Counted from the first letter of the stretch, positions 17,681 to 36,203 are shown. The stretch is 64,000 nt of DNA from a virus (IMGVR_UViG_3300028840_000472), one strand, 5' to 3'. Notes: generated by a model not told the origin, from the letters alone. A program made the numbers and translations.

Positions 17681-17943
17681 CTTCGTGTCCTCTAGCTGTT
17701 AATGAACTGCAGCGTCATTGATACGCTACAATTACATTATAACAAACGCACTTTTGCGAAATCGCACGAAACCCCTATTTTTATAGCATTTCGTGATCTA
17801 AGCCGTTGACTTATAAGACGCGAAAAAACACTTGACACCTATTTTTATAGGACGAAATGCACGTCTACGCCGTCAATTTGATCATAGCGTAAACAGAAAT
17901 TGCATATAAAACAACGACCAAAAAAATTAAAAAAATTATTTTT
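17681..17943. promoter_or_regulatory. AT-rich intergenic control region with two CCTATTTTTATAG palindromic boxes and an extended -10 promoter
   Basis: Two CCTATTTTTATAG copies about 50 bp apart. Each is adjacent to GCATTTCGTG or its complement, so the pair forms a dyad (cacgaaa...tttcgtg). The minus strand carries TGTTATAAT, a TGnTATAAT extended -10. This is the longest AT-rich gap in the early operon. Confidence 0.45.
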
Positions 17944-20386: not shown

Positions 20387-20653
20387 TTATGCCCCTTGAA
20401 GAATTTCTTCGGCCCATTGCTTCGCCTGCTTGCAGGATCCTGCGCCTTCCAGAACGCGGTAGCGACCGTTCTGGTCCTTGGTCGACCGATCGATCAGCAC
20501 CCAGTGGAAGCCGGCCCTGTCGTAGCCATTGCCGCGCTCGTAGCGCTTTGTGATGTAGAAGCGCTTGTCGGCGCTTTCGTAGTTGCGATGCCGGTAGCAC
20601 TTCTTCCAGCTAGGACCGCAGCTGTCGTGGCTTTCAATGTGCCATTTGATCAT
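20387..20653 (-). CDS. Hypothetical protein (88 aa)
   Basis: The ATG at 20651-20653 is preceded by GAGGACACGACA and promoter copy 2. Confidence 0.5.
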   Translation of the reverse strand: MIKWHIESHDSCGPSWKKCYRHRNYESADKRFYITKRYERGNGYDRAGFHWVLIDRSTKDQNGRYRVLEGAGSCKQAKQWAEEILQGA

Positions 20654-20705
20654 TGTCGTGTCCTCGGTGTGTTCGTTCAGTGTGGTTACAGTATGCAGGG
20701 GGCTG

Positions 20706-20718
20706 GCATAAATGTCAA
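20706..20718 (-). promoter_or_regulatory. Conserved early promoter TTGACATTTATGC (copy 2), -10 CATACT
   Basis: 13-mer plus 65-nt conserved leader. Confidence 0.6.
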
Positions 20719-20735
20719 CCCCCTGCGACACATTT

Positions 20736-21062
20736 TTACCGCATGTAGGCGATGGTGTAGACGCCAGCGCAGGAAAGTCCGTGATCCGCTGCGAAGACGT
20801 TGCCGCGTGCGTGCTTCGCCGGTGCCTTCCAGCTGGCCGGCTTGTAGATGTCGCCGGTCACTTTGTCGATGAAGGCGTAGACGTAGCAGCTGCCCGGTCC
20901 CTTCTTGATGACTTTCATGTACTTGCGACCGATTTCGGCGTCGATTTCCTCGCGAAGCTCGACGGGGAAGTTGTTCTTCTCATAGTCGGCTTCGATCATT
21001 TCCTTGACGCCAGCGATGAAGGCGTTGTAAGCGATGACGAATTCGTAGTTCATTGGTTTCAT
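20736..21062 (-). CDS. Hypothetical protein (108 aa)
   Basis: ORF track; conserved leader directly upstream. Confidence 0.5.
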   Translation of the reverse strand: MKPMNYEFVIAYNAFIAGVKEMIEADYEKNNFPVELREEIDAEIGRKYMKVIKKGPGSCYVYAFIDKVTGDIYKPASWKAPAKHARGNVFAADHGLSCAGVYTIAYMR

Positions 21063-21117
21063 TGTCGTGTCCTCAGTGGTGTGTTCGTTCAGTGTGATTA
21101 CAGATTAACCCCGCCCC

Positions 21118-21130
21118 GCATAAATGTCAA
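21118..21130 (-). promoter_or_regulatory. Conserved early promoter TTGACATTTATGC (copy 3), -10 TAATCT
   Basis: 13-mer plus 68-nt conserved leader. Confidence 0.6.
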
Positions 21131-21306
21131 CCCCTTTAGAAAATTTTTTTCGCGATGGTGAAGCTGTGACCGTAGGCATGGCAGCTGTAGACTTCCTTGC
21201 CGTCGGCCTCGACGATGACGAGCGCGTCGCGGGTAAGTTCCGTGCGGACCACAAAAGTGATGATAAGCGGAAGGCAGCTGGCGATTGCGATTATGGCGTT
21301 GATCAT
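21126..21306 (-). CDS. Small membrane protein (about 60 aa)
   Basis: ATG preceded by the GAGGACACGACC leader; hydrophobic N-terminus MINAIIAIASCLPLIITFVV. Coordinates approximate. Confidence 0.3.
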
Positions 21307-21360
21307 GGTCGTGTCCTCTATGTCGTGGTGTCTTGCTTAATTTCTATAATACGCTTATCG

Positions 21361-21373
21361 GCATAAATGTCAA
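21361..21373 (-). promoter_or_regulatory. Conserved early promoter TTGACATTTATGC (copy 4), -10 ATTATA
   Basis: 13-mer plus 67-nt leader. Confidence 0.55.
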
Positions 21374-21380
21374 CACCTTT

Positions 21381-21412
21381 AGAAAAAAATTTACCGGTGT
21401 TTTTTGCACCGG
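21381..21412 (-). terminator. Rho-independent terminator (hairpin CCGGTG-caaaaaa-CACCGG plus U-run)
   Basis: Perfect 6-bp stem followed on the minus strand by TAAATTTTTTTCT, directly after the stop at 21391. Confidence 0.5.
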
Positions 21413-21507
21413 TGCAGGTAGCCGAAGACCGTCTTCACGCACCCGCACCAGTACAGGTTCCCATAGCCGAACGGATCCCCGCAGAAGACCACCCGGCGAA
21501 CCTTCAT
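21391..21507 (-). CDS. Micro-ORF (38 aa, Cys-rich), translationally coupled
   Basis: ATGA overlap with the upstream stop; terminator directly downstream. Confidence 0.25.
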   Translation of the reverse strand: MKVRRVVFCGDPFGYGNLYWCGCVKTVFGYLHRCKKHR

Positions 21508-21788
21508 AGCTCGAAGCTGCCGTCGTAGCACTCGACCTTCCCTGCGGCGTTCTCCCGCAGTTTCCGCACCAGTTCGACGTCTATGTCGGACTGATCCTGT
21601 ATCGCCTTCACAAGCTCCCCCAGACGCCCCAGCGCCAGATCTGCGTCCCTTGCTTTCGTCTGGTACGACACCGACGCCGTAACGCCCGCCATGAACGACC
21701 CGCGTTCCGCTTCCATCAGGTCGTCCGCCGGCACATCCGGGAACGCCTTCGCGCGGAAGTCCTGCCACATCTGTTCGAGTATCGTCAT
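21504..21788 (-). CDS. Hypothetical protein (94 aa)
   Basis: ORF track. Confidence 0.45.
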   Translation of the reverse strand: MTILEQMWQDFRAKAFPDVPADDLMEAERGSFMAGVTASVSYQTKARDADLALGRLGELVKAIQDQSDIDVELVRKLRENAAGKVECYDGSFEL

Positions 21789-22171
21789 TTCTTCACCCTG
21801 TGGTTATACGGTAGATATTCCTCGACGTAGACCGCGTGCGCGTCTTTTATGAAGCCGTTGTCGGCTGTCAGGCAAAAACCCAGCGCGATTAGAGAATCAT
21901 ACAACCCGCTGCAGGTTTCGCAAAGTCTTTCGCAGCCGTCGATCACTTCGACTTCTTCTTCGTCCGTGTACCAGTCGTCCGGGTCGTCGCCATCCTTGAC
22001 CAGTTCTTCTTCCGTTTCCATGTGGTACTTCCACAGCCGCCGCACGCGTTCGCCTGCCGGCTTGTGCTCGCTGCAGCCGTAGCACCGAAAGTCGGTCATT
22101 GCGACACGTTCCGGTTCTTCGACCTGAAAAAACCAGTCATAGTCGTCGTCGCAGTAGCATGAAATCCCCAT
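21785..22171 (-). CDS. Cys-rich acidic protein (about 128 aa)
   Basis: TGATG overlap with the upstream stop; AAGGGG RBS; several CxxC pairs. Confidence 0.4.
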   Translation of the reverse strand: MGISCYCDDDYDWFFQVEEPERVAMTDFRCYGCSEHKPAGERVRRLWKYHMETEEELVKDGDDPDDWYTDEEEVEVIDGCERLCETCSGLYDSLIALGFCLTADNGFIKDAHAVYVEEYLPYNHRVKK

Positions 22172-22509
22172 CACTCGCCCCTTATTCGCGGCACGCACTT
22201 ATCGCGACGAATTCGCGTCAGTCGCACACGCGCGCATAGATTGTTCTGCGTATCCGAACTGCGGATCATCACAGCCTTCGCGCTGTTGTACGCGATAGAA
22301 TATTCACGGTACGGCAACATGCACGCCGCCCCGGTTGCAGCCGATACAAAATCCATCGCGTAGTGAATCGCATCGACGCGATAACGAAACAGCTGCACAT
22401 CGTCGAACGCGTTTGTCGTAACTGCGTGCACGTAATGCAGGACGCGTTCTTCTTCCAGATCTTCTTCGTCGTCGATCGTGGATACGAATTCGAACTGTGT
22501 CCCTGTCAT
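22171..22509 (-). CDS. Hypothetical protein (about 112 aa)
   Basis: ATGA overlap coupling. Confidence 0.4.
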   Translation of the reverse strand: MTGTQFEFVSTIDDEEDLEEERVLHYVHAVTTNAFDDVQLFRYRVDAIHYAMDFVSAATGAACMLPYREYSIAYNSAKAVMIRSSDTQNNLCARVRLTRIRRDKCVPRIRGE

Positions 22510-22994
22510 GCCCCTGCCCCCGGAAACAGCGGATCGTGATCGACCCTGCGCCCCAGCTGGTTGTCGCGTTTCAGTCGCCACGCGTCCGGCCCGACCTTGA
22601 CGTAGATGCCCAGCTTGACGCCGACGTCCATCGCGCGACGGATCGCGTCCCCTGTAACGTATGACGTTACAGCTTCGCGCAGCTGTTCGTACTTCACGCG
22701 TTCATAACCCAGACGCGCGGCACGTTGCAGAACATAGACGCCCACGGCAGAAAGCATCGCGCGGTCCTGCATGTCGCAATCGGCGGACATTTCAAGCGCC
22801 ATCGCGTCGGTGTCAGGCAGCGCCCCGGTAAAGATCACAGCGCCATGATCGAAGATCCATTCGCATACGTCGCGAAACGTTGACGACCGCCGGCTGAACT
22901 TGTGTTCGAACGCTAACTTCCCGGAGTACACGCGGACGATCCAGTAGCGCCTGTTCGACGTGATGATTTCATAGCCGTGTTCTTTACTCTTCAT
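22506..22994 (-). CDS. Hypothetical protein (about 162 aa)
   Basis: Internal ATG chosen to limit overlap with the upstream gene. Confidence 0.4.
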   Translation of the reverse strand: MKSKEHGYEIITSNRRYWIVRVYSGKLAFEHKFSRRSSTFRDVCEWIFDHGAVIFTGALPDTDAMALEMSADCDMQDRAMLSAVGVYVLQRAARLGYERVKYEQLREAVTSYVTGDAIRRAMDVGVKLGIYVKVGPDAWRLKRDNQLGRRVDHDPLFPGAGA

Positions 22995-23265
22995 CGTTGC
23001 CGAATAGTTCGTAGTGCGACGGCACAAGCCCCCAGTGTGAGTAGTCGCCGATGTACATCATGCAGCGCCTGCCGGCCAGCGTCAGCCCGTCTTCGTCCGT
23101 GATGTACTGCAGCTGCGTTGTTAGCCATGGCGTCGAAACGTCTGCCAGATGATTGTAGAAGCGCGCCTGCTCGCTCGAATCATACGCGGCGAAGATCTCC
23201 GCTAACTGTTCCGGCGTTATTGACGCGATAGTTTTCTTCAGCTGTTCCAGTAGTTCGTCACTCAT
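22984..23265 (-). CDS. Hypothetical protein (93 aa)
   Basis: ORF track. Confidence 0.4.
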   Translation of the reverse strand: MSDELLEQLKKTIASITPEQLAEIFAAYDSSEQARFYNHLADVSTPWLTTQLQYITDEDGLTLAGRRCMMYIGDYSHWGLVPSHYELFGNDEE

Positions 23266-23603
23266 GTCGCGAAGTCCTCACGCGGACAAAACCAGTCATC
23301 CTTGATGATGTGCCCGATCGCTTCGATGTGCCCGTGCCCGCCGGTAACGCGTACCGTCTTGCCGGGTAAGTCGTCCCATCTTTCGACGCCTGCGATCTCT
23401 AACACGCGCCAGATAAAGTGCCCGCAGTACGCGCCGCCGCGCGCCAGTTCTTCCGGCGTTCGCTTCGGGTTGTACAGGTTATGCCCGCCGAAACCCTGAC
23501 CGCTGCCGCCGTAGTCAAGATCCAGCCACACAGTAAGGCACCCGTGATCTTCTTTCGTCAGGCGCGCTGATTTTATTATCGCGTTGCGTGTTTCTATTGT
23601 CAT
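23262..23603 (-). CDS. Hypothetical protein (113 aa)
   Basis: ORF track. Confidence 0.4.
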   Translation of the reverse strand: MTIETRNAIIKSARLTKEDHGCLTVWLDLDYGGSGQGFGGHNLYNPKRTPEELARGGAYCGHFIWRVLEIAGVERWDDLPGKTVRVTGGHGHIEAIGHIIKDDWFCPREDFAT

Positions 23604-23902
23604 ATTAAATTCACACTCCCTTCTTCCGGGTACTCTTCCAGCCAGCAGTACACGGTGCCGTCTTCCCTGCGTTCGATTGCCACGTCGGTGTCGCGTTCCT
23701 GCTGCGGTTCGTCTTCGTTTGCGACATAGTCCAGCGCCTGTCGCAGCTGTGCCGCTGTCAGGTACATGCGCAGGTTGCCTTCTTCACGATGGCGCTGTGC
23801 TTCAAGATGCGCCTGCAGGTTTTTCATATCCGTCTGTAGTCGCTTGATGCACTCAATCATAGCGATGCGGTTGCGCTCGTCTTTTTGATCTTCGATACTC
23901 AT
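23600..23902 (-). CDS. Hypothetical coiled-coil protein (100 aa)
   Basis: ORF track. Confidence 0.4.
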   Translation of the reverse strand: MSIEDQKDERNRIAMIECIKRLQTDMKNLQAHLEAQRHREEGNLRMYLTAAQLRQALDYVANEDEPQQERDTDVAIERREDGTVYCWLEEYPEEGSVNLI

Positions 23903-24249
23903 TGGCCTCGGTCCTTTTCAAGTTGTTCGTTGCGCGCGTAGCACGGGTTGCCGTTTTCCAGTCGCAGGAAATACACCGGTCCCTTGCCGTCGTCTTCGTC
24001 CGGTCCGCTAATGTCGCAAATAACGCCACGCACTACGCCGTTGTAAATAACGCGCGACATGACAGGGAACAGCGCGATCGCGTCCCAGTATTTATCGCGT
24101 CCGTATGCGATCGCGGTTAACGCGTCGTGCATACACGTGTACCCCGGCATCCGGTTCCACAGCATTTGCACGAAGCCCCGTTCGGCGTCCGTTAGTTCGC
24201 CGGCCCAGTTCGGCATCTTCAACAGTTCGCGCGCGCGTTCAGTGTTCAT
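23899..24249 (-). CDS. Hypothetical protein (116 aa)
   Basis: ORF track. Confidence 0.4.
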   Translation of the reverse strand: MNTERARELLKMPNWAGELTDAERGFVQMLWNRMPGYTCMHDALTAIAYGRDKYWDAIALFPVMSRVIYNGVVRGVICDISGPDEDDGKGPVYFLRLENGNPCYARNEQLEKDRGQ

Positions 24250-24487
24250 CGTATTCGCTTTCCTTCTGCTGCATGATCAAGTCTTCGATCTTCTCGACGT
24301 CGTCTTCGATCAACGTCCACACGTCGACGTCTGCGACGCGTACGTCGCTGATCTCTATCGTTGCCGGTTCATCCGGTTCAAGCGGTACGCCGAATCTGTC
24401 GCGTGCGCCATGCGTCCCCGGATGGTACGTGTATTCGACAGTCATCGGCACGCCCTGAAATTCCAGTTCTGTTATTTCTGTTTGCAT
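24239..24487 (-). CDS. Hypothetical acidic protein (about 82 aa)
   Basis: Internal ATG of track ORF 24239..24667. Confidence 0.35.
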   Translation of the reverse strand: MQTEITELEFQGVPMTVEYTYHPGTHGARDRFGVPLEPDEPATIEISDVRVADVDVWTLIEDDVEKIEDLIMQQKESEYDEH

Positions 24488-24753
24488 TTCGATGTCTCGC
24501 TGTTGAGCATCGCGCGCCAGTCGCCGCACGCGATAGATTTTTCGTCCAGTGTGAACAGGTCGATGTGTTCCATCACGATCGTGCGCGGTTCCGTTCGCAT
24601 TCCATGTCGCAACGCATGGGACAACGCTTCGTCGTTCTTCAGCAGGTAGGCGGCAAGAACCGCCCACGCTGCCGAATCAATGCCGGTCGCCAGATGCACT
24701 TCGTCGAAGTGTATGCGTTCGCCGGTCGCCAGATTTTCCGCGCGTATGGTCAC
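24472..24753 (-). CDS. Hypothetical protein (GTG start, about 93 aa)
   Basis: GTGA overlap with the stop of 24750..24959. Confidence 0.3.
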   Translation of the reverse strand: MTIRAENLATGERIHFDEVHLATGIDSAAWAVLAAYLLKNDEALSHALRHGMRTEPRTIVMEHIDLFTLDEKSIACGDWRAMLNSETSKCKQK

Positions 24754-24959
24754 GGCTTTTTCCCCATGAATGACAGCGCTTCGTAGAAGTCGCAGACGGC
24801 GACCCTGAATTCCATCGTCCGCACGTATTGCGTCGACGAGTATGCCCAGCGGATCGCCTTCGCTGCGCACAGGCTGACGCGGTCACGTCCCATGTACGGG
24901 TCGGCTTCGAACAATGCCTGCGCGACAAGCCTGACGTATGTCTTATTGACGCGCGCCAT
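24750..24959 (-). CDS. Hypothetical basic protein (69 aa)
   Basis: TAATG overlap coupling with the upstream gene. Confidence 0.35.
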   Translation of the reverse strand: MARVNKTYVRLVAQALFEADPYMGRDRVSLCAAKAIRWAYSSTQYVRTMEFRVAVCDFYEALSFMGKKP

Positions 24960-25192
24960 TATATGTTCCCGATTAAATCACGCGCGTCTGAATACGTGCG
25001 GAAGTCGACGCGGTGAACGATAACCCTGTCGCCGCGCGTCGCTGCGCCGCGCCACAAGATGATGTAGTACGCGTCGGCATCTACGCCGCCTTCGTGCGCG
25101 CCACTTTGTACAGCATCCCAGCCGGTGACGTGGTCGCTATTGAAGCCAAGATCATCGATAAACTGCAGAATTTCGCCGTTTGTTTCGTGCAT
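24959..25192 (-). CDS. Hypothetical protein (77 aa)
   Basis: ORF track; preceded by a GAGGACACGAAC-type leader. Confidence 0.4.
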   Translation of the reverse strand: MHETNGEILQFIDDLGFNSDHVTGWDAVQSGAHEGGVDADAYYIILWRGAATRGDRVIVHRVDFRTYSDARDLIGNI

Positions 25193-25206
25193 GTTCGTGT
25201 CCTCTA

Positions 25207-25503
25207 TTAGTCAGTGTAGCGGATGCGCTGCACGCGTACCGTGCGGCGGCTGCTTGTGTAATTGCCGAAAACGATCACGACGCTGTCGCTGACTTCTTCG
25301 GTGTTTTCCAGCGTGACCCCGTACTTCGTGGAAGTCTTGCCGTCGGACCGGCGGGCGTCGGCTTCCTTCAGAAGCTTGCGCAGATCGGCAGCATGGCGCG
25401 GCGTGATGTTGCCCTTGAAAGACCAGATCGTTTCGCCCTTGCGTTCTTCGACCTTCGCCCTGTCAAGGATCCATGCCAGCGCTTTGTTTTCCAGTACGTT
25501 CAT
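25207..25503 (-). CDS. Hypothetical protein (98 aa)
   Basis: ORF track; conserved leader upstream. Confidence 0.45.
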   Translation of the reverse strand: MNVLENKALAWILDRAKVEERKGETIWSFKGNITPRHAADLRKLLKEADARRSDGKTSTKYGVTLENTEEVSDSVVIVFGNYTSSRRTVRVQRIRYTD

Positions 25504-25522
25504 TGTCGTGTCCTCTATCCTT

Positions 25523-25540
25523 GCCGGCCCGAAGGCCGGC
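25523..25540 (-). other. Stable UUCG-tetraloop hairpin GCCGGCC-UUCG-GGCCGGC, 12 nt after a stop codon (copy 1 of 2)
   Basis: Perfect 7-bp GC stem with a C(UUCG)G loop on the minus-strand transcript; identical to 30329..30346. No U-tract follows. Confidence 0.5.
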
Positions 25541-25551
25541 GCTGTGGCTGC

Positions 25552-25794
25552 TTACTTGGCGATCGCCTTGGCAAGATGGTTGAAGAAGTGCATCACGTTG
25601 CCGTTCATGAAATCGATTTTGACGATCATGGTCTTGATCTGTGCCTGTTCGTGCTTCGGCGCGATCTTCATGTGCTCGACGACGACTTCGAGGGGGATCC
25701 AGTTCGTGCCGCTTGTGCCTTCGACCTCGAAGGTATAGTCGCGGTTCAAGCCTTTTTCGTCGATGAAGGTGTCGATGTAGGTGTTGAAGTTCAT
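25552..25794 (-). CDS. Hypothetical protein (80 aa)
   Basis: ORF track; promoter copy 5 and conserved leader. Confidence 0.5.
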   Translation of the reverse strand: MNFNTYIDTFIDEKGLNRDYTFEVEGTSGTNWIPLEVVVEHMKIAPKHEQAQIKTMIVKIDFMNGNVMHFFNHLAKAIAK

Positions 25795-25853
25795 TGTCGT
25801 GTCCTTTTGTCGTGGTGTTTGCTGCTTCAGTAACTACAGATTACGACTTGCCC

Positions 25854-25866
25854 GCATAAATGTCAA
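25854..25866 (-). promoter_or_regulatory. Conserved early promoter TTGACATTTATGC (copy 5), -10 TAATCT; a second TTGACTTTTATGC variant lies at about 25903-25915
   Basis: 13-mer plus 72-nt leader; the tandem variant is 49 nt upstream. Confidence 0.6.
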
Positions 25867-25915
25867 CCACTTTTTGCAGATTTTTTTATTATTTTTATTT
25901 CTGCATAAAAGTCAA

Positions 25916-26170
25916 TCAGTTAGCGATGCCGACACCCTTGCCTTCGGCGTGATTCCGGGCGTCCATTTCGCTGTCGAAGGTCGGAAACTTCATCGTGTAG
26001 GCGTTGCCCTGCGCATCGTGCCAGACGCGCCCGCCCATGATGTCGGAAGTCGTCGGCTGTGCCGGGTATCCCAGCGCTGCCGGCAGCGTGCCCACGAAGC
26101 CCCAGCGGCCTGACGGATGGCGGATAACGTGTACGCCCAGATCCCGTGATATAACGTCGTATGCGTTCAT
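25916..26170 (-). CDS. Hypothetical protein (84 aa)
   Basis: ORF track. Confidence 0.45.
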   Translation of the reverse strand: MNAYDVISRDLGVHVIRHPSGRWGFVGTLPAALGYPAQPTTSDIMGGRVWHDAQGNAYTMKFPTFDSEMDARNHAEGKGVGIAN

Positions 26171-26182
26171 AGTCGTGTCCCC

Positions 26183-26407
26183 TTAGATGCGGTCCAGTGA
26201 TTCGGCGAAGCCGTCGATGTCGGCCAGCGCTTCAGCGGCCAGCGCTTCTTTGCTGGCGATCCATGCGCGGGTAGCGGATGCGACGACGACTTCAGGATGC
26301 TGCGCGATGGTGTCGGCGTCTACGCGGCTGGTGATGAAGTCAACCAGATCGGCGACGGCGTCGGCGTCAAGGTTGTGGTCAGCTGCGAATTTGTTGATCA
26401 GGTCCAT
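26183..26407 (-). CDS. Hypothetical acidic protein (74 aa)
   Basis: ATG preceded by a GAGGACACGAAC leader and promoter copy 6. Confidence 0.45.
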   Translation of the reverse strand: MDLINKFAADHNLDADAVADLVDFITSRVDADTIAQHPEVVVASATRAWIASKEALAAEALADIDGFAESLDRI

Positions 26408-26465
26408 GTTCGTGTCCTCAGTTCTGTAGTTTTGCTTCAGTGTGTCTTCACTATATGGGGTATCG

Positions 26466-26478
26466 GCATAAATGTCAA
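26466..26478 (-). promoter_or_regulatory. Conserved early promoter TTGACATTTATGC (copy 6), -10 TATAGT
   Basis: 13-mer plus 71-nt leader. Confidence 0.6.
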
Positions 26479-26564
26479 CCCCTTTAGCGAAAAAAATCCG
26501 GCGACTGGCAGAAGGCGAGGACACGACTCCGAAACCTTCCGGGGATCCAGCTGCCGGATAGTGT

Positions 26565-27260
26565 CTACAGTATAACATCGACCAGTGAGGACGCGCCAGA
26601 CTCCGCTACAGCGTTCAGCAGGGCAGACAGGTATTCGGCGTCCGGGTGCGCGTCGCGCGGCGGATACAGCGCTTTAGCGGGCGTCAGAAGCCAGCGAATG
26701 AAGTGCAGCTTCAGCAGGTCCGGTACGTCGTGCATTCCAATCATGTCCAGCTGCAGCGCTGACAGGATCGCGTGTTCCAGCCCGAAGAACATGATTTCCT
26801 TGATCGTGTTTTCGCTGGTGTAAACCTCGATGTCATGTATCAGCCGATCATTCAGCAACAAGCCGTCGTTTGCGACATACATCAGATCGCAGAACGCGCC
26901 CCGGATTGTGTCGCGCGGCTGTTCCTCGAAGATCTGCACCTTGCCGAATCCGTCGAACTTGGAATACGTGGTATTGAACGCGTCTATTTTTGCGCGATCC
27001 TTTTCGACCACGTTCACCGACTTGACGTCCGGCTTCTCCGCGATCGACGCCGTCAGGTAGCCGTTACCGATGCCAGCGATCACGACGTGCCCCGTTGCAA
27101 GATACACAGGCAGCGCCGCCGCCTGTACTGTCTCCGGTGCCAGCGTAAGATCGCCGAAGTGCACTTCGCGCCCGATCCAGTATGTCGCCCCGTACGCGTT
27201 AGGAAAACCGCTGTATCGTTCTTCCAGCTGCGCCAGCGCGCGTTCTTCAGCCGGCTGCAC
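26565..27260 (-). CDS. Putative class I SAM-dependent methyltransferase-like protein (231 aa)
   Basis: Rossmann-type motif VVIAGIGNGYL followed by an acidic residue after the next strand (VNVVEKD). No DPPY/NPPY motif, so probably not a DNA amino-methyltransferase. Confidence 0.35.
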   Translation of the reverse strand: MQPAEERALAQLEERYSGFPNAYGATYWIGREVHFGDLTLAPETVQAAALPVYLATGHVVIAGIGNGYLTASIAEKPDVKSVNVVEKDRAKIDAFNTTYSKFDGFGKVQIFEEQPRDTIRGAFCDLMYVANDGLLLNDRLIHDIEVYTSENTIKEIMFFGLEHAILSALQLDMIGMHDVPDLLKLHFIRWLLTPAKALYPPRDAHPDAEYLSALLNAVAESGASSLVDVIL

Positions 27261-27603
27261 GTTGTGCAGCCTTGGCTTCGATAAACTTCAGGTAGTCGTC
27301 AGCGTTTGCGCGCCCGTGTTCCATCTTGATGACGTGGTAGCGTGAACAGCGAAACTCTTTCGCCGCCTTTTCCATAGACAGGTTGATGCGTCGGCGAAGA
27401 ATCGTCGCGCGCTCGCCGGCTTTCAGGTTGCGCACGTAGCGAAACTGTCGCGCTACTTGTTTCGGCGGTTCGATCACGTCACTTTCCCAGCGCGACACAA
27501 GTGTCTGTGTCACGTTGTGCGACTTGGCGAAGTCGTCCTGCGTCATGTCTTCACGACGCCGCCCGATCATGATCTTCTCGCCTGTTGTTAGCTTGATCTG
27601 CAT
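27247..27603 (-). CDS. XRE-family (Cro/CI-type) transcriptional regulator with two HTH units
   Basis: MIGRRREDMTQDDFAKSHNVTQTLVSRWES and LSMEKAAKEFRCSRYHVIKMEHGR are both HTH_XRE-like. Confidence 0.55.
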   Translation of the reverse strand: MQIKLTTGEKIMIGRRREDMTQDDFAKSHNVTQTLVSRWESDVIEPPKQVARQFRYVRNLKAGERATILRRRINLSMEKAAKEFRCSRYHVIKMEHGRANADDYLKFIEAKAAQRAAG

Positions 27604-28007
27604 AAAGCACCCCTAAAGTGTTGCCAGTCTATGCGCGTTTTATAATGCGCCCTGCTTACATCATACCAGTGCTGTCGCGTAAGTGTATCGACCTTTAGTG
27701 CTACTGGTGCACTGAACAAAAAGTATTCACGCGCGACACGAACAAACAGCCACGCATTACCGCCAGACAGCCAGCGGTTAACTAACCACTGACGCTGGCA
27801 GTCCTTGAAGTGATTTAACCGCACAGGCGTAGACGCGCGCTTCGGCCATTCATGCAGCGCCTTTAGTTCGATCCACACTTCGTTCGAATCGAAACAGCCG
27901 TTCACGTCGGGCGTGCCTTCGTCTACGGCGTTTTCTAACCGTATCCAGTGTTCGCCCTTACGCGACAGGTTGTCGCGCATGTACGCCCACAGCGACGATT
28001 CAGCCAC
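27588..28007 (-). CDS. VRR-NUC domain (PD-(D/E)xK) nuclease
   Basis: PDVNGCFDSNEVWIELK gives a D...E-x-K arrangement; 139 aa. Confidence 0.45.
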   Translation of the reverse strand: MAESSLWAYMRDNLSRKGEHWIRLENAVDEGTPDVNGCFDSNEVWIELKALHEWPKRASTPVRLNHFKDCQRQWLVNRWLSGGNAWLFVRVAREYFLFSAPVALKVDTLTRQHWYDVSRAHYKTRIDWQHFRGALCRSS

Positions 28008-28177
28008 GGTTCACGTGATCGACGAACGTCGTCTGCAGATTGTTTATCCACTCGAAAACAGACGCCCCGATAAAAATCAGGACTGCCATTAAGAGAAGAA
28101 ATTTCAATATGCGTTTTGTATCCATTCCCGTCCACCTTATCCTTGTCACTTTGTTCCCCTGCTTTCTCTCTCCGACG

Positions 28178-28564
28178 CTAACGCGTCAAAAACAGGCGTA
28201 TCTCTGTACCGAATGTCGCATACGTGAACCTGTTAATGTATTTCATGTCGCGTTCGAAGTCTTCGACAATCAATACGACTGCAGGTTTTCTCTTTGTCAT
28301 GCGTGCATAGTACAACGCCTGACCTATCGCTTCCGCCCACTTGTCGGCGAAGTCGAATTCTATCGCGTAGAACACGCCGTCGATCTGTGCCATGCAATCA
28401 ACGCGTGTCGCATCGCGTAACCTGTATTCCGTCACGCTGTCCGTGCCGTGTCCTGCGCACCAGTTCGTCTGATAATACCGTTCACTGTTAAGTCGTGCCG
28501 CTTCAGTGTCGCACCAGCCTGCAAACAATAAACACGCGATAAAAATATTACTAAGCGCCTTCAT
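28178..28564 (-). CDS. Secreted protein with signal peptide (about 128 aa)
   Basis: MKALSNIFIACLLFAGWCDTEAA signal-like N-terminus; internal ATG with GGTG RBS. Confidence 0.4.
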   Translation of the reverse strand: MKALSNIFIACLLFAGWCDTEAARLNSERYYQTNWCAGHGTDSVTEYRLRDATRVDCMAQIDGVFYAIEFDFADKWAEAIGQALYYARMTKRKPAVVLIVEDFERDMKYINRFTYATFGTEIRLFLTR

Positions 28565-28808
28565 GATGCACCACTTCGTTTTTATCGTTGCCGATCTCTT
28601 CAAGATAACTTTCGAACCCGTCCTGATAGTGTTCCTTGACAGGACTGTTACCGAATCCGACTAATACCTGCGCCTTGCACTTTGGGCAGATGAACTTGTC
28701 GCACCTGTAAATCTGGTACGGTTCGTCGCGCTTCGAGTACGTTACCCAGTGCGCGCCCGTTTTCTCGCACTGCATTTCGACATTGCATATTCCGCATACT
28801 GGCCGCAT
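28551..28808 (-). CDS. Zinc-ribbon protein (CGIC...C...CPKC)
   Basis: ORF track. Confidence 0.4.
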   Translation of the reverse strand: MRPVCGICNVEMQCEKTGAHWVTYSKRDEPYQIYRCDKFICPKCKAQVLVGFGNSPVKEHYQDGFESYLEEIGNDKNEVVHHEGA

Positions 28809-28812
28809 GTTA

Positions 28813-29034
28813 TCACCCTTCTATCTTTTTCATCTGTGCAATCAGAAACGCGGTACACTCTGCATTCCCGAAGCACGCTTCAACGCGTATCGCACCGCGC
28901 AAGTATGACTTCTTATCTTCATTCGTCGGCAGTTCTGTTAGACGCTGCAGTACCTTCTTTTTGTACTCCTGCGTAGTTCTGTTGTTCACGTTTCGTTCTC
29001 CCCCGCTTCTTTCGCGTGTAGTCGCTCCTTCCAA
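28813..29034 (-). CDS. Hypothetical protein (73 aa)
   Basis: ORF track. Confidence 0.3.
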   Translation of the reverse strand: MEGATTRERSGGERNVNNRTTQEYKKKVLQRLTELPTNEDKKSYLRGAIRVEACFGNAECTAFLIAQMKKIEG

Positions 29035-29168
29035 TCACTCCCCGGTTCATATTCAAACACCGCGCACCGGTTCGGAAACCCGGTGCGCCCGTCCGCGCAA
29101 AAGTATTCGCCGTCTTCGTATCGAAACGCGACACACGACCAGCAGTTACTGCTCCGCGATACGTTCAC
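28986..29168 (-). CDS. Small Cys-rich protein (60 aa)
   Basis: ORF track. Confidence 0.3.
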   Translation of the reverse strand: MNVSRSSNCWSCVAFRYEDGEYFCADGRTGFPNRCAVFEYEPGSDWKERLHAKEAGENET

Positions 29169-29421
29169 TTAGATGCACGATCCCTTTAGCAAGCACGTCG
29201 GTCCGCGCGTACAGTATCGAAAGCCGTTTTCGAATCCAGCGCACTTGTGTCGCGTACGCCGGACTGTCGCGGTAGACTTCGTGCTTGCGCAATTTCTGCA
29301 GCCGCACTTCCAGCGCGGCAATTTCCTTGAAGTCCTTTTCGATCAGTTCACATCGACGCCGGCGTTCGATGATGAAGAACGGAACGTCGGCGGCGTAGCT
29401 GTTTTCCTGTAACATTGTCAC
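29146..29421 (-). CDS. Hypothetical protein (91 aa)
   Basis: ORF track. Confidence 0.4.
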   Translation of the reverse strand: MTMLQENSYAADVPFFIIERRRRCELIEKDFKEIAALEVRLQKLRKHEVYRDSPAYATQVRWIRKRLSILYARTDVLAKGIVHLSERIAEQ

Positions 29422-29657
29422 ACCATCTTCGATTCGATGCGCGCGATACTTCTGCGCATACGCTTGACGAAGTCCATTAGCAGCACGATGCGTTCGAGAT
29501 AATACACCGCTTCGGGACTGCCGGCATCCAGTGCGCGACGCTTTTCGTGGTACGCACTGATCGTCCGCAGCGCCTGCTTCCGTATCTTCCGCCGTCGTTC
29601 CAGTTCTTCTTCAAAGAACGACGGCGGCACATTATACACTAAGCGTTCTTTTCCCAT
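29418..29657 (-). CDS. Hypothetical basic protein (about 79 aa)
   Basis: Internal ATG 1 nt after the upstream stop. Confidence 0.35.
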   Translation of the reverse strand: MGKERLVYNVPPSFFEEELERRRKIRKQALRTISAYHEKRRALDAGSPEAVYYLERIVLLMDFVKRMRRSIARIESKMV

Positions 29658-29658
29658 G

Positions 29659-29985
29659 TCAGCACCAGTAGGTCCGTTTCCAGTGTTTACGCGGCATCGA
29701 CGAAAGCTTACCAGCAACGCCGCCGTTGTTTGCGACAAAACCATTCCAGTGCGCTTGTACCCGTTTGCGGCTGGAACTGCCGTCAAGTTCGTGCGTACCG
29801 GTCGGCCCGGTCATGCGGAACTTCACGCGCGTGAATTCCTTTTCGTTGTAGACCTGTCGATCGCTGTCGCGTCCGTAATCCGTATGGAAGTAATGGTTCA
29901 CGTCATACACGACTTCGATCTTGCAGCCCGTGTCCGGCGTCAATGGTTCGTCCCAGTATTCGACCTTGTCGTATCCTACGTTCAT
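29659..29985 (-). CDS. Hypothetical protein (108 aa)
   Basis: ORF track; GAGGACACGATAATG leader. Confidence 0.4.
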   Translation of the reverse strand: MNVGYDKVEYWDEPLTPDTGCKIEVVYDVNHYFHTDYGRDSDRQVYNEKEFTRVKFRMTGPTGTHELDGSSSRKRVQAHWNGFVANNGGVAGKLSSMPRKHWKRTYWC

Positions 29986-29999
29986 TATCGTGTCCTCTA

Positions 30000-30206
30000 T
30001 TAGTCGTTCCAGCAGTCGTTCAGTACAGTGATCAGGCGCGTCCCCGGCATCGTGGTCAGCTTGCCGCCGGCGTAGGTTCCGATCTTCTTATTGCTACCGG
30101 TGCCCCACTCGACGATGTATCCACCCAGTGCGCGTTCCTTGCGGATGCGGACGACCTTCGTGATGTCTTGGCTACCGCGTGTTCCGTGTATGGTAAGTTC
30201 TTTCAT
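30000..30206 (-). CDS. Hypothetical protein (68 aa)
   Basis: ORF track; promoter copy 7 and leader. Confidence 0.45.
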   Translation of the reverse strand: MKELTIHGTRGSQDITKVVRIRKERALGGYIVEWGTGSNKKIGTYAGGKLTTMPGTRLITVLNDCWND

Positions 30207-30258
30207 CGTCGTGTCCTCAGTGCGTTCGTTCAGTGTAGGTATAGATTATCGAACGTCT

Positions 30259-30271
30259 GCATAAATGTCAA
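30259..30271 (-). promoter_or_regulatory. Conserved early promoter TTGACATTTATGC (copy 7), -10 TAATCT
   Basis: 13-mer plus 65-nt leader; a TTGACTTTCG variant lies at about 30307-30319. Confidence 0.6.
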
Positions 30272-30328
30272 CACCTTGCAACAAAAAAATTCAATTATTT
30301 TTTAATCTTCACGAAAGTCAACGGGTTA

Positions 30329-30346
30329 GCCGGCCCGAAGGCCGGC
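30329..30346 (-). other. Stable UUCG-tetraloop hairpin GCCGGCC-UUCG-GGCCGGC, 11 nt after a stop codon (copy 2 of 2)
   Basis: Identical 18-mer to 25523..25540, in the same position relative to a gene end. Confidence 0.5.
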
Positions 30347-30356
30347 TTTCTGTGGG

Positions 30357-30725
30357 TTAGTAGGTGATGTTCGCGACCATTTCGTGCCAGCCTTCGACGG
30401 TCGCCGGGTAGCCAGCGTCGCGGCACTGCTTGCGCATGTGGGGTTCAAGATAGCCCTTCCCCATCATGATGTTAAGCGGGGATTCATCCCGTTCGAGCGC
30501 GCCCAGATACTCTTCGACGGTGAAGTTCTTCACCATGAAATTGACCCATGACTTCCACGCCCTGTTGTACTTGAAGCGTGCGATGAATGCAGCCTTCGGA
30601 AGACCGAAGCGGGTCGGATGGCAGCGCTCGCCGTTCTCGCCGTAGTAGGTCGTATACACGCCCTGCTCGCCTTCGTAGGTCAGATACATGCCGTCCCAGT
30701 TGAATTTGTCTTTGTCGAAGTTCAT
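30357..30725 (-). CDS. Hypothetical protein (122 aa)
   Basis: ORF track; promoter copy 8 and leader. Confidence 0.5.
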   Translation of the reverse strand: MNFDKDKFNWDGMYLTYEGEQGVYTTYYGENGERCHPTRFGLPKAAFIARFKYNRAWKSWVNFMVKNFTVEEYLGALERDESPLNIMMGKGYLEPHMRKQCRDAGYPATVEGWHEMVANITY

Positions 30726-30780
30726 TGTCGTGTCCTCAGTGGTGTGTTGTGCTTCAGTGACTACAGTATCCAGTTTGTCG

Positions 30781-30793
30781 GCATAAATGTCAA
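30781..30793 (-). promoter_or_regulatory. Conserved early promoter TTGACATTTATGC (copy 8), -10 GATACT
   Basis: 13-mer plus 68-nt leader. Confidence 0.6.
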
Positions 30794-30812
30794 CCCCTTT
30801 AGAAAAAAAATT

Positions 30813-32792
30813 TTAGAGATCTTCCATCGTCCCCCAGTTCGGCCCGCGCTCGCCGTCCACGACGACCGGGATCTTCAGCTGTATGCAGTTTTCCATGATG
30901 TCGACCAGTTCCCGAAAACCTTCTGCAGCTTCCTGTGTGCCGCTGTCGCTGAAGTTCAGTTCGTCGTGGACCGTGATCAGGGGGATCCCTGTCGCGTCGA
31001 ATACGCCGGCCCTGTGCGCGTCACGCATGGCTTTCTTCATCATGTCAGCGGACGATCCCTGCAGGACCGCGTTCAGTGCCGCGTGTGTGCCGGCGCGCTG
31101 GATGTTCGACCCGTATTCCCTGATCGCGTCTTCCTTCGGCAGCGGTTTCATTTTGTCGCGTTCGGCCTTGTCCATGAAGTTCGCCGATTCGAACAGATCG
31201 AAACGCCGACGCCGACCGAGTACCGTCTTCACGTACCCGCGATTCTTTGCCGTGCTGATTGCAAGGTCGTACGTCTTCTTCACGAACGGGACGCCTTCGT
31301 GGTACGCCTCGAACAGCGGCGTCGCTTCCTTCACGGTCATGCCAAGATTTGCAGCCAGTGCTGGCACGCCCATCCCGTAGCACAGCCCGAAGTTAATGTT
31401 CTTCGTCGGCTTGCGGTCCAGCATGATCGCAGTTATCACGTGGATAAGTTCGCGCGTCATCTGGTGATAATCTGTCTTCGGATCCTTGCGATAACGTTCG
31501 CGCGCTTCGTCTGCACCGGGACCGACAGCGAAGTGTGAAAGCAAGCGATATTCGATCTGCGAGTAGTCATAGCGACGCCAGTACGGATCGCCGGGATCTG
31601 GAATAAACAGCGAACGGATAAGCGGCCCGATAATCTTGTCGCGTGATGGTATGTTCTGCAGGTTCGGGTTCGATGAACTGAAGCGCCCGGACACTGTGCC
31701 GTTTTCGTCACCGCGTAACGGATGGAACTGCGCGTGTATGCGGCCATTGATCACGCTGCCCAGTATGTGCCCGTCGATGAACGTGCCGATCGTCTTGTCC
31801 AGACTGCGGACCTGTACGATCATCTGCGCAAGTTCGCTTTCGTGATTTTCCAGCCACGCCTTCGTGAACGACGGCTTCTTCGTTTTCGCTGTGTGCGGGT
31901 AGTGTATGCCTTCGGCATCGAATGCACGCGCGATAGTTTCTGCTGCCCATACGTCGACCGGCGCGCCCGCCATCTTGTTCAGCTTCTTCTGCAGTTCCGC
32001 CTGTTGCCCGCGCATCGTTGCGCGTACTTCATCCGCGCGATCGACGTCGACTGCGACACCGTGCCAGCGCATTTCCAGCAGCAACGGCAGCAGATCCGTT
32101 TCCAGCTGAAACAGTTCCAGCAGTTCCTGCTTTTCAAGTTCGCGTCGCTGCAGATGCCAGATGCGCAGCGGAAGATCGACGTCGCCTTCAGCGTACGGAC
32201 CGACCAGCTGCACCGGTGCGCGATAAATATTCCCGGCCTGATCTTTACGCGTGAACTTTCCGCCGTACGTATCCGCCAGCCAGTGATACAGATCGTTGTC
32301 TTTCTTTCCTTCGTTCAGCCACTGACGCGCCAGCTTTTCCAGCGCGTAGGAAAACGCGTTTTCGTCTAGCAATGCCTGCGCGCTTTGCACGTCGATCAGA
32401 TCGCCGGCAACGTTCACGCCGTCAGCGCGCAGCATCGATACGTCGTACATCAGGTTCGCGCCGATCTTCGGTTGATGCGGACGCGACAGTTCTTCGCGCG
32501 CCCAGCGAAGCACCATTTCCGGGTCCATGTTTTGATGCCCGAATTCGTGCCGCATGGGGAAGTACCAGCGCCCGCCGTCGTCGGTGCCGACCGCGATGCC
32601 GACGATCTTGCCGTCGCCGCGTATGTCGCCGGGTCCGTCCTGCTTCAGTCGCTTGTCCTTGGTTTCGACGTCGATCGCGATTTCCTTCGCGGCATCCAGC
32701 CGGGGAAATTGTTGCGGCGGCGTCCAGCCTGTGTCGGGAACCTTCGCTGCCAGATCTTCACGCGACAGCAGCATACCCTGTTCGCCCTTCAT
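30813..32792 (-). CDS. polA: Family A DNA polymerase (Pol I-like) with N-terminal 3'-5' exonuclease domain
   Basis: Exo motif IAIDVETKD. Polymerase motif B KNINFGLCYGMGVPALAANL and motif C LITVHDELNF. 659 aa. Confidence 0.85.
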   Translation of the reverse strand: MKGEQGMLLSREDLAAKVPDTGWTPPQQFPRLDAAKEIAIDVETKDKRLKQDGPGDIRGDGKIVGIAVGTDDGGRWYFPMRHEFGHQNMDPEMVLRWAREELSRPHQPKIGANLMYDVSMLRADGVNVAGDLIDVQSAQALLDENAFSYALEKLARQWLNEGKKDNDLYHWLADTYGGKFTRKDQAGNIYRAPVQLVGPYAEGDVDLPLRIWHLQRRELEKQELLELFQLETDLLPLLLEMRWHGVAVDVDRADEVRATMRGQQAELQKKLNKMAGAPVDVWAAETIARAFDAEGIHYPHTAKTKKPSFTKAWLENHESELAQMIVQVRSLDKTIGTFIDGHILGSVINGRIHAQFHPLRGDENGTVSGRFSSSNPNLQNIPSRDKIIGPLIRSLFIPDPGDPYWRRYDYSQIEYRLLSHFAVGPGADEARERYRKDPKTDYHQMTRELIHVITAIMLDRKPTKNINFGLCYGMGVPALAANLGMTVKEATPLFEAYHEGVPFVKKTYDLAISTAKNRGYVKTVLGRRRRFDLFESANFMDKAERDKMKPLPKEDAIREYGSNIQRAGTHAALNAVLQGSSADMMKKAMRDAHRAGVFDATGIPLITVHDELNFSDSGTQEAAEGFRELVDIMENCIQLKIPVVVDGERGPNWGTMEDL

Positions 32793-34996: not shown

Positions 34997-35050
34997 GTTC
35001 GTGTCCTCTAAGGTTGTGGGGCGTCCCTGCCCCGTTGTAGTCCGTTGTGA

Positions 35051-36031: not shown

Positions 36032-36098
36032 TGGTCTTACTCCTTGTGTTAGTTCTGTAGTTTGTCGTGTACTGCAGGGACTACATTACGACACGAAG

Positions 36099-36111: not shown

Positions 36112-36203
36112 CACTTTTATGAAATTTTTTTCACGGCGTTTGCGACATATAAAGAAAATGGGACGACGGCGCGGGCATCGAAAATGCACCGCCGCCCCCG
36201 TAA

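Follow-up and report, generated by a model that had tools for sequence, protein, structure and literature searches.

Sigma70-like promoter–leader cassettes repeated before the non-structural genes of an uncultured siphovirus-like phage

Introduction

Repeated elements that combine a promoter with a translation start have been described as PeSLs in the T4-like myoviruses RB49/phi1, PST and nt-1 (Arbiol et al. 2010, PMC2839356; Comeau et al. 2014, PMC4122927). A PeSL carries the stop codon of the upstream gene in an AT-rich tract, followed by a sigma70 promoter, polyG/polyC stem-loops that are variably placed and may lie over the −35, and a Shine–Dalgarno (SD) sequence with an ATG at the 3' end (PMC2839356); these elements sit among ORFan genes and their copies recombine (PMC2839356; PMC4122927). 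Here we describe a repeated cassette joining a sigma70-like promoter to a short leader and a translation start in a 64,000-nucleotide stretch of the viral genome IMGVR_UViG_3300028840_000472 (hereafter, the window), which is part of an 88,079-bp metagenome contig (ENA ERZ27256798, k141_2638583).

For the most part, the stoperators of Cluster A mycobacteriophages (L5 gp71) are found at a distance from promoters, and they block elongation. The early promoters of phage T4 possess 'additional regions of consensus' beyond sigma70 and UP elements (PMC2988021), and start-associated sequences (SAS) have been reported from Cluster K mycobacteriophages (Pope et al. 2011, PMC3203893).

Twelve cassettes confined to non-structural genes

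The 13-mer TTGACATTTATGC occurs nine times without change in the window and 19 times when up to two mismatches are allowed, against 1.41 ± 1.26 expected; none of the 100 dinucleotide-preserving shuffles that served as the baseline attained 19 matches. A whole-cassette nhmmer profile, spanning the UP tract through the −10 and built from 12 aligned copies, was run over 75.4 kb of the contig (the window and 11.4 kb of flanking sequence) and returned exactly 12 strong copies (E-values of 5e-15 to 1e-9), with all other matches at noise level. All 12 full copies are located in the non-structural region, seven of them within 20640–30800, and the 34 kb of structural modules included in the profile search contain none; the structural and lysis genes are cassette-free. 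The repeated cassettes are thus real, enriched and confined to non-structural genes; the genes directly behind them mostly have no family match or no known function. An earlier sequence-only reading of the window had drawn attention to the repeated 13-mer cassette, which is borne out here; its count of at least 13 holds only if the two or three partial or weak copies are added to the 12 strong ones.

Each cassette is named by the start of its −35 in the window (9077, 20718, 21130, 21373, 25866, 26478, 30271, 30793 and 36111 on the minus strand; 43063, 43999 and 44256 on the plus strand). The cassettes and the partial, weak or promoter-like sites beside them are as follows, with the −10 hexamer given after the spacer:

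9021–9102, minus: P9077; TTGACATTTATGC, UP-like tract, 17-nt spacer, TAGTCT, 19-nt leader, GAGGACACGACAATG
20651–20743, minus: P20718; exact 13-mer, 17-nt spacer, CATACT
21060–21155, minus: P21130; exact 13-mer, 17-nt spacer, TAATCT
21304–21398, minus: P21373; exact 13-mer, 16-nt spacer, TATTAT
25792–25891, minus: P25866; exact 13-mer, 17-nt spacer, TAATCT
25888–25915, minus: partial tandem promoter 49 nt upstream of P25866; TTGACTTTTATGC (25903–25915), 16-nt spacer, AATAAT, no leader or SD of its own
26405–26503, minus: P26478; exact 13-mer, 17-nt spacer, TATAGT
30204–30296, minus: P30271; exact 13-mer, 17-nt spacer, TAATCT
30294–30321: second promoter-like site just before P30271; TTGACT-16-AATAAT
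30723–30818, minus: P30793; exact 13-mer, 17-nt spacer, GATACT; begins at the stop codon of the DNA polymerase gene
36029–36136, minus: P36111, the most divergent copy; TTGACATCTATTC, 17-nt spacer, TAATGT, SD AAGGAG
36429–36500, minus: weak copy in the 3' end of the UvrD-helicase gene, before a 75-amino-acid (aa) gene; TTGACTTTTAAGC (36488–36500; TTGACT), 17-nt spacer, TACAGT, GAGGACAGAACTATG, no UP tract
43038–43143, plus: P43063; TTGACTTTTATGC, 16-nt spacer, TATTAT
43974–44066, plus: P43999; TTGACATATATGC, 17-nt spacer, TATAGT
44231–44324, plus: P44256; exact 13-mer, 18-nt spacer, CATAAT

The −10 of P43063 is overlapped by that of a promoter-like site on the minus strand (TTGTCG-17-TATAAT, 43086–43114), which faces the SNF2-helicase operon and may be a back-to-back divergent promoter of this helicase/primase operon.

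Anatomy of the promoter part

From 5' to 3', the cassette consists of an A/T-rich tract, TTGACA-TTTATGC, ten variable nucleotides, TAnnnT followed by GTA, an A/C-rich stretch and GAGGACACGACAATG. The A/T-rich tract, typically TAAAATTTTTTT(C)TAAAGGKG, often contains the stop codon of the upstream gene, and column-wise information content revealed conservation of AAA(A/T)TTTTTT(C)TAAAGG at positions −25 to −4 relative to the −35 start. We take this tract to resemble a full UP element. AGGKG directly precedes the −35, of which TTGAC is invariant (TTGACA in 11 copies, TTGACT in one). Behind it stands TTTATGC, invariant in nine of the 12 window copies, and then a variable half-spacer and a moderately conserved TAnnnT represented by the hexamers TAATCT, TATAGT, CATACT, GATACT, TATTAT, TAGTCT, TAATGT and CATAAT. 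The hexamers are separated by 17 nt in nine copies, 16 in two and 18 in one, a distance that includes TTTATGC, so that only 10 nt follow the 13-mer and not the 17 previously assigned to that interval. An A is conserved at −4, and CA is found where −1/+1 would be expected.

In a generic scan for sigma70 promoters the cassettes were the top-scoring sites, with 10–11 of 12 hexamer positions matched. They thus unite the features by which sigma70 promoters are recognised, namely a near-TTGACA −35, a spacer of 17 ± 1 bp, a TAnnnT −10 and an A/T-rich UP-like tract.

Unstructured leaders and a conserved start block

Counted from the predicted +1 (the A of the conserved CA, 35 nt from the start of TTGACA), the 5' untranslated regions would be 19–45 nt long, A-rich and U-poor, with GAGGACACGAnnATG at their 3' end; the distance from the −35 to the ATG is 54–80 nt, and it is this distance that the sequence-only reading had described as a leader of 55–80 nt. 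Base composition is 44% A, 28% C, 20% G and 8% U in the leaders of the window, whereas those of the relatives introduced below are purine-rich (47% A, 23% G, 22% C and 8% U). When the region from +1 to codon 11 was folded and compared with composition-matched shuffles, all 12 translation-initiation regions (TIRs) of the window proved less stable than the shuffles (z of +0.6 to +2.1), as did all 15 leaders of the relatives (mean z +1.56), a total of 27 out of 27. Because the leaders of the relatives are purine-rich and yet unstructured, the conserved property is the lack of structure and not a CA motif. The CA-richness once proposed to enhance translation is therefore specific to this genome, and what is conserved is the A-rich, U-poor, unstructured state.

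The SD, GAGGA, is located 7 nt before the ATG. The start block GAGGACACGACAATG, recognised from the outset as the end of the leader, has 24 matches at up to three mismatches, compared with 3.1 expected. Its core GGACACGA precedes 20 of the 79 non-structural genes but none of the 22 structural and lysis (late) genes. About nine of these 20 genes carry the block without a promoter, typically at a TAG-AGGACACGAnn-ATG junction in which the stop codon of the upstream gene overlaps the block. By inspection, and assuming the universal 3' end of 16S rRNA, the CACGAC segment between SD and ATG is unable to extend the anti-SD pairing. The blocks that stand apart from the cassettes are:

15649–15663, minus: promoter-less TIR block GAGGACACGAACATG, before a 152-aa gene
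17678–17692, minus: TIR block GAGGACACGAAGATG, before a 145-aa gene and downstream of a 263-nt non-cassette gap
25190–25204, minus: promoter-less TIR block, TAA-TAGAGGACACGAACATG junction
25501–25515, minus: promoter-less TIR block, TAG-AGGACACGACAATG junction
26168–26182, minus: promoter-less TIR block GGGGACACGACTATG
29983–29997, minus: promoter-less TIR block GAGGACACGATAATG
34994–35008, minus: promoter-less TIR block GAGGACACGAACATG, before a 183-aa gene
43444–43458, plus: promoter-less TIR block, TAG-AGGACACGACCATG
44499–44513, plus: promoter-less TIR block, TAG-AGGACACGACAATG
44863–44877, plus: promoter-less TIR block, TAG-ATGACACGACAATG

The 263-nt non-coding gap at 17681–17943 (minus strand) is complex and unlike the cassettes. 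An A/T tract in it leads to a degenerate GTTGTTTTATATGC, which may be what is left of a cassette, and the gap also holds two copies of the palindrome CTATAAAAATAGG and a TTATAAT −10-like site. At two places in the relative L070 (12454–12505 and 17340–17390), a polyC/polyG hairpin (GCAGCCCCCCGAAAGGGGGGC; GCGCCCTTCGGGGCGC) is directly followed by a promoter-less GAGGACACGRC TIR block.

Conservation in relatives

Five relatives were sampled by their DNA polymerases and are thus unbiased with respect to the motif. The sequence-only reading had staked its case on the motif recurring in relatives, and the cassette is present in all five. L070 (polymerase 65% identical, GC content 48%) has five cassettes, one directly behind the polymerase gene and one that is the positional ortholog of P36111; L073 (69%) has one, separated from the polymerase gene by a 127-aa gene; L169 (64%) carries an exact TTGACTTTTATGC and L168 (63%) TTGACTTTTAGAA; and L170 (61%) carries TTGACTTTTAATC together with TTGACTTCTAGTC before a DUF932 gene, mirroring the divergent window copy TTGACATCTATTC. 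All of them retain AGAGGACACGAC(n)ATG or a close variant, and the position of P30793 is conserved in L070, L168, L169 and L170. The robust core among these unbiased relatives is TTGACW-TTTA-nnC, with TTTA in nine of ten copies, C13 in nine of ten and TG (positions 11–12) in six of ten.

A relaxed DNA pattern recovered one 50-kb IMG/VR contig (L074, four copies) and eight metagenome contigs, one of them a duplicate; the strict cassette pattern was absent from the viral and genome collections, and the motif strings were absent from the searchable literature and from deposited phages. The distant relatives L072 (59%) and L001 (56%) are without the cassette, and the DNA fetched for L072, L001 and L002 contains no TTGACW-16/18-TAnnnT sites. 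At 80 loci reached through homologs of the 122-aa protein, the gene is preceded by generic A-tract+TTGACA-17-TATAAT promoters and never by the 13-mer extension or the start block. A blastn search of deposited phages with the cassette gave marginal matches only, the best of which (E = 0.07) linked P30793 to a sigma70-type promoter between the DNA-ligase subunit genes of the T5-like Pectobacterium phage My1 (L167, JX195166.1 65565–65594; TTGACATTTACGCCGACACACTGTATACT), with 27 of 30 positions shared, including the spacer; this match is probably a coincidence and was set aside.

Gene order and concerted variation

Gene order was compared by tblastn of the window proteins against the relatives. 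The 56-aa and 108-aa (DUF7717) genes, which have separate cassettes downstream of the 82...94-aa block in the window, are represented in L070 by adjacent homologs under a single cassette upstream of that block. In L083 a cassette is followed by the 56-aa homolog and then by a homolog of the 122-aa gene, which in the window belongs to a unit of its own at a distance of 9 kb. The DUF7717 and w25916 homologs of L074, each behind a cassette, reside on the arm diverging from the replication genes, whereas in the window they reside on the other arm. Behind the homolog of the 94-aa gene (w21504, 21504–21788) there is a cassette in the window, L070 and L077, with a different next gene in each, and in L070 an insertion of three genes (amidoligase, an 87-aa gene and GGACT) stands directly behind the ortholog of P36111.

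The copies also share variants that are diagnostic of their genome. At the sixth base of the −35, 11 of 13 window copies have A and all 11 copies of L070, L073, L074 and L075 have T, and the spacer between SD and ATG ends in CA in the window and L070, in CC in L074 (six of seven) and in C in L073, L076 and L077. P20718 and P44256, on opposite strands and before unrelated open reading frames, are 88% identical in the otherwise variable part, and the cassettes at 21373, 26478, 30793 and 43999 constitute one sequence subfamily. Diagnostic variants within genomes together with synteny breaks at cassettes are plausibly the pattern that recombination between cassettes would produce. The cassette shuffling suggested by the sequence-only reading gains indirect support from the fact that gene-order differences to L070, L073, L074, L083 and L077 fall at cassettes and that copies evolve in concert, but the breakpoints are not placed at nucleotide resolution.

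The accessory modules beside the polymerase differ between the relatives. In L070, amidoligase, GGACT and PALP genes lie directly behind a cassette (2663–4635). L072 (740–5704 and 6276–9176) encodes thymidine-hypermodification-type genes (ADDT, 5-hmdU kinase-like, thymidylate synthase), and its DNA polymerase carries an intein and an HNH domain; the polymerase of L168 also has an intein.

Comparison with described phage repeats

Like the PeSLs, the cassettes have the upstream stop codon in an AT-rich tract, followed by a sigma70 −35 and −10, an SD and an ATG; some have GGGG...CCCC stems at variable positions, including over the −35; the copies are clustered among small non-structural ORFan genes; and where the relatives differ in gene content, the differences coincide with cassettes. 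The phage is, however, a siphovirus-like one of ~88 kb that is unrelated to T4, which makes the cassettes analogues and not homologues of PeSLs. Stem-loops accompany only about half of the copies here, while the −35 extension TTTA(TGC) and a fixed block between SD and ATG are conserved, and recombination, which in PeSLs involves the cassettes themselves and mini-circles, is here a proposal drawn from sequence comparison.

Many near-consensus promoters with UP elements for the host polymerase are also known from T4 (the 'über' early promoters with UP, −35, TGn and −10), T7 (A1), lambda (PL) and T5 (reviewed in PMC2988021). As in the T4 early promoters, there are extra conserved positions, and the cassettes would presumably out-compete host promoters right after infection; unlike them, the cassettes have no TGn and only a moderate −10 (TAnnnT), so that a strong dependence on the −35 and the UP element is expected, and promoter, conserved leader and TIR form one physical unit. 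The start block, in turn, resembles SAS in being an asymmetric block of ~13 nt with an SD core, a few nucleotides before the ATG of a subset of genes. Both are restricted to the non-structural half, stand before unrelated gene families (in SAS, across subclusters), sometimes include the upstream stop codon and have conserved positions that cannot pair with 16S rRNA. The sequences differ (AGAGGACACGAC here, GGGATAGGAGCCC in SAS), the lineage is not Cluster K, no ESAS-type 17-bp inverted repeats were seen upstream, and in this phage half of the copies belong to a promoter cassette.

With stoperators the cassettes share a 13-bp asymmetric repeat that has a −35-like TTGACA and a single orientation relative to transcription. 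Unlike stoperators, however, all convincing copies belong to complete promoters, and the sole 13-mer-like sites outside promoters (45556+ and 45620−) are not conserved in a paralogous element. The cassettes are, in sum, a non-homologous combination of two known kinds of phage repeat, PeSL-like and SAS-like, and do not call for a new category.

Genome context and transcription units

The phage is uncultured and siphovirus-like, as judged by its tape measure, tail tube and Pam3-like proteins, and its DNA polymerase is of family A. A megablast search with 12-kb pieces against 50,697 deposited phages gave no match to this genome, the closest cultured DNA-polymerase match is about 53% identical, and neither tRNAs nor Rfam families were found. 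Its identifiable modules are:

4.4–7.4 kb: portal and large terminase
30.8–43 kb: replication module with family A DNA polymerase, AEP primase, UvrD and SNF2 helicases and Pam3-like proteins
47–64 kb: tape measure, tail tube, distal tail proteins and amidase

The remainder consists of ~80 small genes, most of which could not be annotated. Coding is almost wholly on the minus strand, except for a divergent plus-strand block at 43.1–45.3 kb; codon statistics identified the plus-strand reading frames as the coding ones in 44.0–45.4 kb. The genes behind each cassette are listed below as predicted transcription units:

P9077, minus: 124- and 86-aa genes, then a 626-bp non-coding iteron region before the terminase genes
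P20718, minus: 88-aa gene, then 11.6 kb without a further cassette
P21130, minus: single gene of 108 aa (DUF7717)
P21373, minus: single gene of 56 aa
P25866, minus: 15 genes, from 25794 down to 21391
P26478, minus: two genes of 74 and 84 aa
P30271, minus: 11 genes, including that of an HTH_3 (Cro/CI-type) protein at 27247–27603 (minus), conserved in L070
P30793, minus: single gene of 122 aa
P36111, minus: five genes, namely DUF932, 183-, 177- and 331-aa genes and DNA polymerase
P43063, plus: 97-, 103- and 70-aa genes, first unit of the divergent plus-strand block
P43999, plus: single gene of 57 aa
P44256, plus: 53-, 109- and 125-aa genes, ending at a strong terminator (45299–45326)

The HTH_3 protein is a candidate trans-acting regulator. 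The long stretch behind P20718 has at least one sigma70-like promoter that is not a cassette (TTGACG-16-TGgCATAAT, 17069–17096). It also encodes, at 18823–19740 (minus), a 305-aa protein with a weak AcrVA2-like match in Pfam, a possible anti-CRISPR or anti-defence early gene.

Immediately before three cassettes (21373, 26478 and 36111) stands a terminator-like hairpin whose T-run merges into the UP tract. The hairpins near cassettes are:

20695–20726 (P20718) and 44248–44280 (P44256): GCAGGGGG..CCCCCTGC hairpin straddling the −35, a GGGGG/CCCCC stem of about −21 to −24 kcal/mol in both copies
21393–21413: canonical terminator before P21373, its T-run being the UP tract
26496–26559: long hairpin plus ATTTTTTT, before P26478
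30329–30346: GC hairpin without a T-run, upstream of P30271
36160–36198: terminator-like hairpin plus ATTTTCTTT, before P36111

Self-contained modules of promoter, leader and one reading frame, as originally envisaged, are found in four units (P21130, P21373, P30793 and P43999), and the other cassettes head operons. Hairpins or terminators, expected at several units, accompany about half of the cassettes, six of the 12 having none. That cassettes drive small early genes is apt insofar as they front non-structural genes; 'small' is too narrow, as replication genes are included.

A phage sigma factor and elements at the presumed early/late boundaries

One gene among the late genes, after the lysis genes, encodes a sigma factor:

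46381–46872, minus: phage sigma factor, 163 aa, Sigma70_r4 (Pfam, 41 bits)

The protein matches PHROG 1740 'RNA polymerase sigma factor' (E = 7e-14, residues 3–162), and its region 4 is nearest to those of FliA and WhiG. Neither a cassette nor any recognisable promoter lies before the gene, and a late-promoter motif was not identified. The lack of cassettes at the structural and lysis genes and the presence of a sigma factor gene make it plausible that the phage changes from host sigma70 to its own sigma factor, which would drive the cassette-free late genes. Matches to a sigma28-type pattern, cTAAAGGKG + TTGACATTTAT + GCCGAYAN, fall within four cassettes:

21355–21381, minus: in P21373
26460–26486, minus: in P26478
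30775–30801, minus: in P30793
43991–44017, plus: in P43999

A non-coding element of ~240 bp is present in two direct copies (7879–8103 and 45343–45582; 69% identity, E = 1e-28), and both comprise a CGCGCGCGCATATAT tract, A/T palindromes (GAAATTTTTTTC) and GGTAGCA iterons, four to five per copy. Between them they enclose the whole cassette-bearing non-structural region at the presumed early/late boundaries, and 12 of the 19 GGTAGCA sites of the window lie in these two regions if three inverted copies at 8183–8203 are counted in. The elements could function as origins or as boundary elements, or they could bind a late activator or sigma factor. An inverted pair of 13-mer-like sites (45556+ TTGACATTTAGGA and 45620− TTGACATTCATGC), with no −10, leader or SD, flanks three GGGACGC repeats. 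We considered the pair as evidence for a DNA-binding protein and rejected it, as the paralogous element at 7.9–8.1 kb lacks it. Antisense reading frames beginning at the ATG in the reverse complement of the 13-mer and resemblances to IHF and LexA half-sites were judged by eye to be due to chance.

Discussion

We consider it probable (about 0.72) that the cassettes are compact expression modules read by host RNA polymerase with a sigma70-type factor and that they double as homology for recombination. The A/T-rich tract (AAATTTTTTTCTAAAGG), in some copies also the U-run of the preceding terminator, would serve as an UP element for the C-terminal domains of the alpha subunits (alpha-CTD), and sigma region 4 would contact the perfect −35 TTGACA; across a 17-bp spacer and a moderate −10 (TAnnnT), transcription would start at the conserved CA ~7 nt downstream of the −10. 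The RNA would open with an A-rich, U-poor, non-folding leader of 19–45 nt, and because the leader is unable to fold, we propose that the strong SD 7 nt before the ATG is freely accessible. This mechanism follows the established rules of sigma70 promoters. With −10 elements that match the consensus at only three to five of six positions, the promoters should depend heavily on contacts with sigma region 4 and alpha-CTD, a dependence through which the cassettes could easily be switched off as a class. The 12 modules would split the 37-kb non-structural half into no fewer than 12 transcription units, which include both single ORFan genes and the replication operon. As near-identical patches of ~90 nt stand before unrelated genes on both strands, we propose that they also offer homology for recombination, with copies being homogenised within the genome and gene modules exchanged, inserted or moved at cassette boundaries, as in the PeSLs of T4-like phages.

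Several points weigh against this reading. The match of the −10 elements is modest, as just noted; the +1, the strength and the timing of the promoters are predictions; and the conservation of TTTA(TGC) and of CACGAC exceeds what contacts with RNA polymerase or 16S rRNA need, so that something further may act at these positions. The loci L074–L083 were found by using the motif itself and are subject to ascertainment bias. Regarding recombination, breakpoints are expected in intergenic DNA and cassettes fill most of the larger gaps, which makes their coincidence partly trivial, and a search for near-identical genomes with indels yielded six contigs with the same proteins, all with the same gene order, and no pair of more than 90% identity in which a crossover could be placed in a cassette.

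The excess conservation could mean that the extended −35 (AGGKG-TTGACW-TTTATGC) is at the same time the site of a sequence-specific regulator turning all the cassettes on or off and that the GAGGACACGAC block is an RNA site at which a translational repressor or endoribonuclease acts on early mRNAs in the manner of T4 RegA/RegB, an idea we regard as unlikely but with definite points in its favour. TTTATGC is kept in the window despite variation in the −10 and the remaining spacer, TTTA and C13 persist in the unbiased relatives, and the 80 loci of the 122-aa protein have promoters with UP and TTGACA but neither the extension nor the TIR block, which is itself limited to non-structural genes; CACGAC does not lengthen the anti-SD pairing. 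T4 RegB cuts within the SD of early mRNAs (PMC2988021), and SAS raise the same question (PMC3203893). The regulator could be the HTH_3 repressor-like protein of the putatively early P30271 unit, a phage sigma or anti-sigma factor, or a host factor. In an extended version, which we hold to be equally doubtful, the AGGKG-TTGACW-TTTA(TGC) DNA block and the AGAGGACACGAC RNA block would be sites for phage factors and would form a two-level switch, transcriptional plus translational or acting on mRNA decay, that turns a regulon of ~20 early genes off or keeps it on, while doubling as recombination patches. The 13-mer, however, is without dyad symmetry, has no convincing copies outside promoters (the pair at 45556/45620 being unconserved) and is relaxed at TG in the unbiased relatives (TTTAGAA, TTTAATC); its invariance within the genome is explained by concerted evolution, and no RegA-like or RegB-like gene was identified.

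A phage sigma factor of the FliA (sigma28) type might instead recognise the cassettes as cTAAAGGKG (−35 TAAA), 15 nt and GCCGATAA (−10). In its region 4, the sigma factor encoded by the phage does come closest to FliA and WhiG, and the four cassettes that match TAAA-N15-GCCGATAA at up to one mismatch are the only such matches in the window, but they belong to one subfamily and probably match through shared ancestry. GCCGATAA is missing from eight of the 12 cassettes in the window and from every copy in the relatives, no such motif precedes the late operons, the sigma gene lies among the late genes without a cassette of its own, and the earliest genes would be out of reach of a phage sigma factor that did not enter the cell with the injected DNA. 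As TTGACA-17-TAnnnT fits much better and is universal among the copies, we rejected recognition by the phage sigma factor as a general explanation and consider it very improbable. Even less credible is that the similarity is a leftover of recent tandem or dispersed duplication of promoter and gene, with no selection on the repeat. Some copies are indeed near-identical (P20718 and P44256), and a few first genes start alike (MTN... at 43999 and 44256, for example); the downstream reading frames are nevertheless unrelated between most copies, and such a leftover does not account for 27 of 27 leaders being less structured than their composition predicts. Duplication without selection is contradicted by block-wise conservation across diverged relatives, in which the blocks are kept between genomes with polymerases 61–69% identical and GC contents of 48–58% while the sequence between them is randomised.

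The reading of the cassettes as host-read expression modules yields a promoter and transcription-unit map for an uncultured clade of ~88-kb phages. PeSL-like cassettes, so far described in T4-like myoviruses, are found also in an unrelated siphovirus lineage, where they are fused to an SAS-like start block, which supports the view that repeated regulatory cassettes serve as a general means of expressing small accessory genes and of exchanging them. New phage regulators acting on host RNA polymerase or on early mRNAs could be sought with the over-conserved positions as a defined target, and the cassettes themselves, predicted to be compact, strong and insulated expression parts, are potential elements for synthetic biology.

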